Shown: positions 15,119-48,389, numbered from the stretch's first letter. The stretch is 64,000 nucleotides of DNA from Candidatus Pacearchaeota archaeon (GCA_026395815.1 JAPLXZ010000011.1:1638-65637); one strand, 5' to 3'. Notes: generated by a model from the letters alone, not told the origin. Numbers and translations: made by a program.

Positions 15119-15194
15119 TAATTAAACATAACCATGAAAACTTTTAAACTTTCGTATTACAAAAGTTTTTATATTCCCCTTTCATAAAAAAAGT

Positions 15195-15290
15195 ATGACA
15201 GAACAGGAGTTCGTTGCAGACAGGAAATCAGCCACTCGTTCGTCAAAGACAAACGACAGCACAAATAAAAATTCAGGAGAATTTTCATAA
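15195..15290 (+). repeat. Copy 1 of a ~96-nt repeated leader element (31-codon ORF-compatible)
   Basis: 86/96 identical, without indels, to the reverse complement of 34983..35078 (hand alignment). Core GCAGACAGGAAATCAGCCACT is shared with 39789..39887. The element ends CAGGAGAATTTTCATAATG, where ATG is the Sec61-beta start. Confidence 0.6.
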
Positions 15291-15448
15291 TGGCTGATGA
15301 TGGAATAAATATGCCCACGGGCTTTGGTGGTTTGATGAGGTTTAAAGATGAGTATGACAGTTTTCTAAATTTAAAACCAGTCCATGTAATCGTATTTATA
15401 ATTTTAATTGTAGTATTCAGAGTTCTATTACAGATTTTTATGAAGTAA
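15290..15448 (+). CDS. secG: Preprotein translocase subunit Sec61-beta (SecG)
   Basis: 52-aa ORF absent from the track: MADDGINMPTGFGGLMRFKDEYDSFLNLKPVHVIVFIILIVVFRVLLQIFMK. It has the GL.RF motif plus a single C-terminal TM anchor. AGGAG lies 8-12 nt upstream. Confidence 0.75.
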   Translation: MADDGINMPTGFGGLMRFKDEYDSFLNLKPVHVIVFIILIVVFRVLLQIFMK

Positions 15449-20967: not shown

Positions 20968-21086
20968 TGAGCCTGCACGGATTTGAACCGTGGACCCCTG
21001 CCTTCCCGAATTCTGAAAGATTTCAGCAAATGGAACTTGTTCCGATTTATCAGAGCAGTGCTCTAACCGGGCTGAGCTACAGGCTC
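20968..21086 (-). tRNA. tRNA-Ile(GAU) with ~44-nt intron at 37/38
   Basis: Acceptor GAGCCUG/CAGGCUC, D arm GCUC/GAGC, anticodon stem CUGCU/GGCAG, loop CUGAUA|intron|A, T arm CACGG-UUCAAAU-CCGUG. The intron spans roughly 21004..21047. Confidence 0.8.
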
Positions 21087-34982: not shown

Positions 34983-35078
34983 TTATGAAAATTCTCCTGA
35001 ATTTTTATTTGTGCTGTCGTTCGGCTCTGACAAACGAATGGCTGACTTCCTGTCTGCAATGAACTTTAGTTCTGTCAT
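34983..35078 (-). repeat. Copy 2 of the ~96-nt repeated leader element
   Basis: See 15195..15290. Preceded by TTTAGGAGATTTTGCATA, which is an SD plus spacer for its own ATG at 35078. Confidence 0.6.
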
Positions 35079-35125
35079 TATGCAAAATCTCCTAAATTTT
35101 GTATCCGGAACAAAGTGAGGATATT

Positions 35126-39385: not shown

Positions 39386-39789
39386 TTTATCTCTCCCTTT
39401 TCAACCAGAAATTTTATATTTGGGGCAACATTATATTTACCTCGCTTAATCTCTTTTATATCTAACCACTTAATCTCCTTAATAGGATGAACCGGTTTAA
39501 TCTCATTAAGATTGTTTAAATCTGCTAGATAATGATGCAACTCAATTCGCATTTTCTTGTGTGTTGTTGGATTTCTATTAAGAATTAGTGTGGATAATTT
39601 TTTTATTATGATAATGTCAGCATTAACTTCTTCCCATGCTTCTCTTATGCAAGTCTCATCTAAACTCTCATTCTCTTTTAATCTCCCCCCAGGAAGTTTA
39701 TAAAAATCATCTTTATCATCCTTGTCAACTAACAATTTTCCTTCATTAATAATTATGGGTCCAGATGCGATAATTTCTTCTACTACCAT
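39382..39789 (-). CDS. NUDIX hydrolase
   Basis: Nudix box GGRLKENESLDETCIREAWEEVNA. The ATG at 39789 (MVVEEII) is preceded by GGAGG. Its stop overlaps the gatA ATG (ATGA). Confidence 0.85.
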   Translation of the reverse strand: MVVEEIIASGPIIINEGKLLVDKDDKDDFYKLPGGRLKENESLDETCIREAWEEVNADIIIIKKLSTLILNRNPTTHKKMRIELHHYLADLNNLNEIKPVHPIKEIKWLDIKEIKRGKYNVAPNIKFLVEKGEIK

Positions 39790-39887
39790 TATGCAAAACC
39801 TCCGGTTTTGTATTTTGGTTGAATTTCCTGTGCACAAATTCCTCGTCTTGTGCAGTGGCTGACTTTCTGTCTGCTACGTTCTACCAT
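39789..39887 (-). repeat. Copy 3 (diverged) of the repeated leader element
   Basis: Core GCAGACAGAAAGTCAGCCACT, then the perfect hairpin TGCACAA-N10-TTGTGCA, then CCGGAGGTTTTGCATAATG, ending on the NUDIX ATG. It starts at the gatC stop. Confidence 0.5.
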
Positions 39888-48271: not shown

Positions 48272-48389
48272 TGAGCCTGCGAGGATTCGAACCCCGATTA
48301 ACCGGTATCTCCGAAGTTTGCTTGCATATGGATTATCTCGCAAGCTTCCTCGCCGAAGCCGGTTGTGCTGTCCATTACACCACAGGCCC
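48272..48389 (-). tRNA. tRNA-Arg(UCG) with ~46-nt intron at 37/38
   Basis: Acceptor GGGCCUG/CAGGCUC, anticodon stem ACCGG/CCGGU, loop CUUCGG|intron|A, T arm CGGGG-UUCGAAU-CCUCG. The intron (about 48307..48352) contains the stem GCUUGC/GCAAGC. The gene starts 2 nt after the gatB stop, on the opposite strand. Confidence 0.8.

Follow-up and report, generated by a model that had tools for sequence, protein, structure and literature searches.

What is a 96-nt sequence that recurs in an archaeal genome, each time at or close to the start of a different gene? The question arose in a 64,000-nt stretch of DNA (hereafter the window) belonging to G000, an archaeal MAG of 704 kb (32% G+C, 17 contigs, assembly 85% complete). 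A sequence-only reading of this window had recognised three copies of the element and listed several candidate roles, namely a cis-regulatory leader RNA, a protein-binding operator, a coupled upstream micro-ORF, and a small MITE-like insertion supplying a ribosome-binding site (RBS).

Copies 1 (15195-15290, + strand) and 2 (34983-35078, - strand) were re-measured and share, as reported, 86 of 96 positions with zero indels; the identical run described at their 3' ends also exists, with a length of 39 nt in place of the claimed 36. The 21-nt core, GCAGACAGRAARTCAGCCAYT, is indeed found three times in the window (15216 on the + strand, 35037 and 39854 on the - strand), for a chance expectation of 0 and no match in 100 shuffles. 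Copy 1 reads as a 31-codon mini-ORF from an ATG at 15195 to a TAA at 15288-15290, its terminal TAATG overlapping the start, at 15290, of the Sec61beta gene that it displaces (15290-15448, +; 52 aa; PF03911 at 22 bits, just below the cut-off). Copy 3 (39789-39887, - strand) forms a 32-codon mini-ORF and likewise ends in a TAATG containing the ATG of the displaced gene, here a NUDIX gene (PF00293; 39382-39789, -). Copy 2 is a long form placed away from start codons; its final CATAA precedes a 92-aa ORF by 39 nt, as previously noted.

These three copies are merely the long forms of a far larger family, the initial count of three being correct for the window. The core occurs nine times in the 704-kb genome, i.e. 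six times beyond the window, and a genome-wide scan detected about 20 cassettes of ~50 nt in G000. A covariance model that used sequence alone, trained on 12 cassettes, was run on G000, its congeners and other genera, and recovered more copies, with 20 matches in G000 and 2-18 matches in 12 of the 16 other species of the genus; zero matches were obtained with this model in four congeners (G002, G005, G006 and G015) and in 14 genomes of other genera from the same order. The richest genomes were G031 (41 matches), G000 (20), G013 (18) and G011 (16). Given the 41 copies in G031, a MAG outside the 17 listed genomes, a strict restriction to the genus does not quite hold; the metallo-beta-lactamase (MBL)-fold protein of G031 is 73% identical to that of G000, a value falling inside the within-genus range. 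Public records of core-bearing relatives are labelled Pacearchaeota, Woesearchaeota or Nanoarchaeota archaeon, and the family appears limited to a single clade of Pacearchaeota-type DPANN archaea.

Across the cassettes examined, TAATG terminates 100 of ~115. In G000, single or tandem cassettes stand directly ahead of the genes for GyrB, L2, S19, L19e, L32e, L39e, SecY, Sec61beta, aIF5A, prefoldin beta and Rrp42, of a histone-like gene and of the NUDIX gene. Tandem forms include a doublet at G000 C2:127213 and an array in G003 (C3:3677-4032, L003), where at least six identical 50-nt cassettes, each encoding MSKHEICHKYKTGGFA followed by a stop, are chained by TAATG ahead of one gene, the array being broken by a run of N. 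Two degenerate tandem cassettes with in-frame stops were also observed at G000 C7:21838-21939; their ending, TTTTTCGTAA, has its counterpart where the upstream gene ends, ATTTCGTAA, and the cassette 3' end thus appears matched to the local junction.

The 96-nt element is itself a composite, in which a cassette of ~50 nt carries a nested unit of 42-48 nt. The outer cassette is ordered as ATG, head hairpin, A-rich linker, SD in a hairpin loop and TAATG, with the consensus ATG, head hairpin (AGGAA-type loop), CA(G)CACAAAUACAAAA, SD (A/G)GGAG, UUUUGCAUA, next ATG. The nested unit is made of hairpin 1 (GCAGAC-AGGAA-GUCAGC), then CAYU, then a variable hairpin 2 that covaries. Copy 1 accordingly divides into a head, ATGACAGAACAGGAGTTC (15195-15212, +; hairpin GAAC/GUUC), a nested 45-nt core unit (15213-15257) and a tail (15258-15290). 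The unit contains hairpin 1 (15216-15232, GCAGAC AGGAA AUCAGC), CACU and hairpin 2 (15236-15256, UCGUUCG...CAAACGA), and the tail holds the A-rich linker, the SD hairpin (stem 15268-15274/15279-15285, loop AGGA, SD AGGAG at 15275-15279) and UUUUCAUAA. Deleting 15213-15257 (45 nt) joins ATGACAGAACAGGAGTTC to AGCACAAATAAAAATTCAGGAGAATTTTCATAATG and regenerates a perfect short cassette, whose subfamily is also found elsewhere, e.g. at L051. Copy 2 has the same parts on the - strand (head 35078-35061, nested unit 35060-35016, tail 35015-34983). Copy 3 had been taken for a diverged third copy; it does contain the core, yet its core unit is nested elsewhere and in a different cassette subfamily. There, the head ATGGUAGAAC (39887-39878, -) is followed by a 48-nt unit (39830-39877) lying between the 5' arm of the head hairpin and its AGGAA loop, with hairpin 1 GCAGAC AGAAA GUCAGC and hairpin 2 UGCACAAG...UUUGUGCA. 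Removal of 39877-39830 (48 nt) restores a short cassette present at G000 C2:161922.

This modular nesting extends over the whole family. The nested unit occupies three positions in cassettes: after the 3' arm of the head hairpin (copies 1 and 2), between the 5' arm of the head hairpin and the loop (copy 3 and the SecY copy, which differ at 4 of 101 positions on different contigs), or just before the SD hairpin, a position common in metagenomic relatives. It is also found alone, free of any cassette, next to a tRNA gene (L187; L245 and L297), and in frame within proteins: it adds 15 aa to the LeuRS of G013 (absent from the LeuRS of G000, G004 and G008) and 14 aa to the N-terminus of PriS in G011 relative to G000, and in G016 and two metagenomic relatives it is joined to the C-terminal end of a ScpB-like protein. 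The protein-binding operator that had been envisaged, here taken as that of a regulon, is not supported by these locations: the element fronts unrelated genes, and it is also present within coding sequences, next to a tRNA and where the RNase P RNA gene ends. As a separate observation, the L22-like protein of G000 (C2:102950-103140, L028) has a long Lys/Glu-rich N-terminal extension with the core variant GGCAAACAGGAAGTTAGCCAC, read there as GKQEVSH; the same variant occurs in the same frame in the PriS of G011 and the LeuRS of G013.

Comparing orthologous sites revealed an insertion polymorphism. At Sec61beta, 14 of 16 congeners lack the insertion; in them, a conserved promoter box, AAGAAACTTTTAAATACC or a TTTTTATAC variant located ~20-30 nt before ATGGCAGA, directly abuts this start. 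Because this geometry is that of a standard archaeal promoter, we infer that Sec61beta is a leaderless gene in these congeners. For the same reason, a promoter role is probable for the TATA-like box TTTTTATATT of G000 (15166-15175, +), which begins 29 nt upstream of the ATG of copy 1. The sites of G010 and G016 have the promoter variant of G000 at the same 29-nt spacing and are empty, and G000 has exactly 95 additional nt between ATG and GCTGAT; from this unchanged promoter-to-ATG spacing, the ATG of copy 1 would occupy the former leaderless start. Other short cassettes, differing from that of G000, stand at the Sec61beta start of G014 and G031, and a long form is present there in one metagenomic lineage (L243). 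These differing cassettes suggest that this start has been hit or overwritten repeatedly. Around this locus, the box AAGAAACTTTTAAATACC, some 20 nt upstream of the Sec61beta ATG, shows strong conservation throughout the genus (window 15120-15194; L125-L141), and the valyl-tRNA synthetase gene is divergent from Sec61beta, an arrangement that fits a leaderless Sec61beta-NAC transcript.

The NUDIX site is empty in G006 and G016, where it reads ..GAAATGGTAGAAA.. with the TAG of the upstream gene within ATGGTAG. In G000, it holds a 98-nt insertion with ATGGTAGAA at both ends, the NUDIX start ATGGTAGTAGAA repeating the ATGGTAGAA of the cassette head, and the TAG of the upstream GatC-like gene (39883-39881) still lies within ATGGTAG. 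A metagenomic near relative (L248) has the G000-type insertion plus one more cassette. At the site of copy 2, G010 and G016 show the MBL-fold gene, a short cassette-free spacer (..GAGTAAGAATAATCCTATAC.. in G010) and the 92-aa gene. By contrast with this empty configuration, G000 displays after the MBL stop a 200-nt composite formed by a second-type cassette remnant and the long form. The remnant (..UCCUC..CCGGAUACAAAAU..AGGAGAUUUUGCAUA; 35079-35124, -), whose full-length relatives are cassettes of the MKNRKFF.. type, lies directly upstream of copy 2 and provides the SD for its ATG. The composite is flanked by a 12-nt direct repeat, AAGGAATAATCT, the left copy of which (35183-35172, -) holds the stop codon of the MBL-fold gene, the right one (34983-34972, -) lying exactly 200 nt away. 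The TATA-like box of the 92-aa gene is downstream of the insertion, so copy 2 does not act as the leader of that gene. On this comparative evidence, all three window copies appear to be insertions and not conserved leaders. The conserved leader RNA of the sequence-only reading is disfavoured by the absence of the element at the same genes in most relatives, together with the lack of an Rfam match. Two other proposals of that reading, the coupled upstream micro-ORF and the RBS-supplying insertion, belong together, and both are supported by the empty orthologous sites and by an ATG-to-TAATG frame that stays open across length variants.

This frame was analysed in 96 cassettes from 13 species with a recognisable ATG and a TAATG end. 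Cassette length equals 2 mod 3, placing the ATG in frame with the TAA, in 81 of the 96, and the frame is fully open in 80; the remaining cassettes, about 15%, are off by one base. The same rule applies to 17 of the 22 distinct lengths (47 to 137 nt), and the mini-ORFs range from 15 to 48 codons. Among 95 distinct sequences, the start-anchored frame is stop-free in 90, the other two frames in 1 and 39. A unit stop-free in all three frames was considered and dropped, as 6 of 17 units contain no stop trinucleotide and the rest have 1-2 in unused frames. The frame is maintained without conservation of the peptide: depending on the copy, the core is translated as ADRKSA, LQTGSQP or SRQEVSH (12, 19 and 2, respectively, of the 33 open metagenomic cassettes). 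Two copies of G013 (L016 and L023) even read the core in different frames, compensating +1/-1 length changes flanking it. Since the core is read in all three frames while the ATG-TAATG frame is kept across length classes, openness of the frame appears to be selected and the peptide does not.

These data bear directly on a functional micro-protein, i.e. selection on the 31-aa product (MTEQEFVADRKSA...GEFS) itself. It could draw on the frame being open in ~84% of copies and preceded by an SD or a leaderless start, and on the recurrence of ADRKSA in one subfamily. Such selection is, however, hard to reconcile with three core frames occurring even within one genome and with products of such unequal lengths, and the constant C-terminal F-A/F-S is merely the nucleotide sequence of the SD spacer. 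In addition, of the 10 differences that separate copies 1 and 2, 9 alter the amino acid in the 31-codon frame and 1 is synonymous, a count from which the sequence-only reading had already argued against a strongly selected peptide outside the ADRKSA block and which we reproduced. We regard this explanation as extremely improbable.

With more copies, hairpins 1 and 2 of the nested unit were both found to covary. In hairpin 1, pair 4/14 is A-U in 17 cases, G-C in 12 and unpaired in 0, pair 6/12 alternates between C-G and U-A, and 80% of cells are paired vs 12-34% with a slid partner column. Hairpin 2 (22 distinct 21-mers) has 83.5% of cells paired vs 20-51% with a slid partner, changes on both sides in 5 of 8 pairs, and a covariation score of 0.38 vs 0.17 when shuffled, a score of 0.38 being reached by 0 of 500 shuffles; other subtypes replace it by unrelated hairpins (CACAAG/CUUGUG, CCGCA/UGCGG). 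The outer cassette behaves similarly, with 36 distinct stem variants of the head hairpin among 95 cassettes, and 62 stem/loop variants of the tail hairpin, whose loop contains the SD in 78 of 95. Wobble pairs are scarce (5/470 in head stems, 19/619 in tail stems). This covariation may reflect either a need in the RNA (stability, insulation of the RBS) or a need in DNA or RNA during copying; the hairpins would serve the spread of the element, or RNA stability or insulation.

Covarying hairpins would also be expected if the core and its hairpin were a riboswitch, or a site for a protein or small RNA, co-regulating the downstream genes as a shared cis-regulatory RNA. Copy 1 offers an example, its predicted fold being stabler than shuffled controls (z = -2.4). 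The core segment AUCAGCCA (15225-15232) is perfectly complementary over 8 nt to the Sec61beta start UGGCUGAU (15291-15298), and the minimum-free-energy fold uses this pairing, which is predicted to sequester the start region. The complementarity (p about 0.004 for copy 1) was, however, seen in 1 of 13 long forms, namely copy 1, so that a general switch based on it was rejected; it is probably a by-product of Ala-Asp codons resembling a hairpin arm. Further evidence runs against a shared regulatory RNA: the orthologous genes of most congeners lack the element, the downstream genes are functionally unrelated, and the core unit is also found in coding sequences, at a protein C-terminus, beside a tRNA and at three nested positions. 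At the gathering score, Rfam returned only tRNAs, and around the elements the best E-values were 0.6-10, far below cut-offs, leaving no known RNA family or riboswitch to which the element could be assigned. We therefore judge this explanation very unlikely. Among the tRNAs detected by Rfam in the window, two of 118-119 nt (20968-21086 and 48272-48389, both - strand) were not reported by ARAGORN and are probably intron-containing tRNA genes.

The interpretation that we favour, and consider probable, is that the 96-nt element is a lineage-specific, MIRU/RPE-like insertion of two nested modules, tolerated because the cassette would relay ribosomes to the displaced start. The ~50-nt cassette would land on a start codon, duplicating the ATG, and its own ATG would inherit the previous initiation context, be it a leaderless 5' end (Sec61beta) or coupling to an upstream stop (NUDIX), the upstream-stop contexts taken over being TAAAATG and ATGGTAG. 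The ribosome would then translate 15-48 codons of stop-free frame, opening the hairpins, with the SD exposed in a hairpin loop that lies 7-9 nt ahead of the displaced ATG; on reaching UAAUG, it would end translation and begin again on the host gene, aided by this internal SD. Independently of the cassette, the 42-48-nt unit would insert at three different points of cassettes, within coding sequences (in frame) and in spacers. Weighing against this interpretation are the ~15% of cassettes that are out of frame, as well as the features of the ends and the enzyme searches described below. The translation and relay steps are inferred; in archaea, termination-reinitiation at overlapping stop and start codons has been demonstrated in Haloferax volcanii (PMC6728339).

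The same architecture could alternatively be that of a host-beneficial translation adaptor, in which the cassette, whatever its origin, is kept for improving or standardising expression. Starts that had been leaderless or tightly coupled would thereby become those of SD-led second cistrons, the loop shielding the RBS from its surroundings and the translating ribosome unfolding the start region, as a natural counterpart of bicistronic design. The correspondence is point for point (leader ORF, SD inside, TAATG overlap), and cassettes are enriched before L2, S19, L19e, L32e, L39e, SecY, Sec61beta, aIF5A, GyrB, prefoldin and Rrp42. Moreover, the SecY and aIF5A cassette sites are common to several species, three different cassettes occupy the Sec61beta start (G000, G014 and G031), and hairpin covariation points to ongoing constraint. 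The cassette is nonetheless dispensable, given the four congeners lacking any detectable copy and the emptiness of most orthologous sites. Copies without a gene start after them (copy 2, those at the 3' end of the RNase P RNA gene and beside a tRNA), the tandem arrays of identical units in G003, which resemble slippage or selfish amplification, and the ~15% of frame-broken cassettes also speak against a benefit to the host, making an adaptor of this kind rather unlikely in our view.

How a tolerated insertion of this type spreads is partly constrained by its ends. The label of MITE-like insertion holds only loosely, the hallmarks of classical MITEs being missing: the ends match as inverted repeats at 6.7 of 12 positions, no better than the 6.3 of 12 of shuffled sequences, and the flanking direct repeats vary in length (3, i.e. 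the ATG, 9, 12, 17 and 23 nt) instead of forming a fixed-length target duplication. A duplication well beyond the ATG was rejected as a rule (identity at positions 4-12 of 3.93 vs 3.70 permuted, p = 0.02); position 4 alone is individually significant beyond the ATG, longer repeats being exceptional (9 nt at NUDIX, 10 nt at Sec61beta of G031). Every copy is co-oriented with genes. Two copies are tails that have lost their 5' part and lie away from start codons; the first adjoins the 3' end of the RNase P RNA gene and the second is at C14:113987. At the former (G000 C8:14298-14658; L206 599-959), a cassette tail of 27 nt, CCAATAAAAAACAGGAGTTTTTCATAA, comes directly after the archaeal RNase P RNA gene (RF00373, 126 bits) and is succeeded by a 23-nt exact repeat of the RNA 3' end, AGGTGGCCTATTCCCAACTTACA, i.e. 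an insertion truncated on its 5' side and bordered by a long duplication. At the latter (G000 C14:113940-114060, L207), the tail has on either side a copy of a gene's final 9-10 codons, ending in GMNNIVVLKN and GMNNIVVLKQ, each before a stop; their first 17 nt are identical and later differences are almost all synonymous, a pattern left unexplained by a simple target duplication.

Regarding enzymes, Y1_Tnp and RVT_1, the families searched, are absent from the 85% complete G000 assembly. Within the genus, Y1 (IS200-type) transposases were found in G008 (three, on C77, C26 and C63) and G010 (one, on C22), and reverse transcriptase genes in G008 (C44) and G011 (C1), and in no other member. Absent from this incomplete assembly and uncorrelated with copy number across the genus, a Y1 transposase of IS200/REP-RAYT type or a reverse transcriptase was put aside as the mobiliser. 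IMG/VR contained no exact core or tail pattern, a weak negative, the tail pattern being rigid. These features would be better accounted for by template switching, by a process resembling retroposition, or by recombination where SD-stop/start junctions look alike, than by a cut-and-paste transposase. The 5'-truncated tails, the 3-23-nt duplications, the strict co-orientation and the lack of terminal inverted repeats and of a transposase of the family searched lead us to suggest, as a less likely possibility, that the nested unit and the cassette spread by a hitherto undescribed mechanism, hairpin-recognising or RNA-templated, that targets start codons and is compatible with coding sequence. If true, this would represent an archaeal "translation-aware" mobile DNA converting leaderless genes to SD-led ones.

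Several known systems share part of these properties. MIRUs (Supply et al. 1997), as summarised in PMC12548453, are mobile repeats that insert at start codons and carry a coupled ORF minimising the impact of the insertion. As an analogy of behaviour only, the cassettes resemble them as short dispersed repeats, apparently mobile and variably present between relatives, that occupy start-codon sites, often in operons, with an ORF stop coupled to the host start making insertion cheap, and that show tandem copy-number variants (the G003 array, the C2:127213 doublet). They differ in their host, a DPANN archaeon (a sequence relation is not expected across domains), in their TAATG overlap (-1, vs the -4 spacing of MIRUs), in their three or four covarying hairpins, SD in a loop and nested second unit, and in also landing on leaderless starts. 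Rickettsia palindromic elements (RPEs) insert in frame within genes (PMC10969869); the nested unit recalls them as a small hairpin repeat of a reduced genome found in frame in genes (LeuRS, PriS, ScpB-like) that it leaves open, although it measures 42-48 nt vs about 100-150 bp, has an unconserved peptide (three frames) where each RPE family has a conserved one, and resides mostly in leaders, not genes. Synthetic bicistronic design (BCD) cassettes, cited in PMC12548453 (ref. 78), are similar in sequence features only, with a short leader cistron that has a start of its own and contains an SD 7-9 nt ahead of the second start, and with the TAATG overlap, whereas the present cassettes are natural, repeated, variably present and endowed with hairpins. 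Finally, Correia, ERIC and REP MITEs and REP-RAYT systems are likewise small repeats co-transcribed with their neighbours, with hairpins kept by compensatory change; unlike them, the cassettes have no terminal inverted repeats or fixed-length duplication, are strictly gene-oriented, and have no Y1/RAYT-type gene in G000. Full-text literature searches brought up no account of elements of this type from DPANN archaea; a census preprint reports a high MITE density in a "Woesearchaea" genome, start codons not being discussed.

For genome annotation, this family explains long "spacers" in ribosomal-protein operons, spurious ORFs of 15-50 codons, and lineage-specific inserts of 14-15 residues at protein termini. 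It also offers a test bed for leaderless vs SD-led initiation and for termination-reinitiation in archaea. More broadly, DPANN genomes of 0.6-0.8 Mb still carry actively turning-over repeats within their mRNAs, exactly at start codons, and the cassette family would survive there through its build as a translational relay, a natural archaeal parallel to MIRUs, RPEs and bicistronic design.
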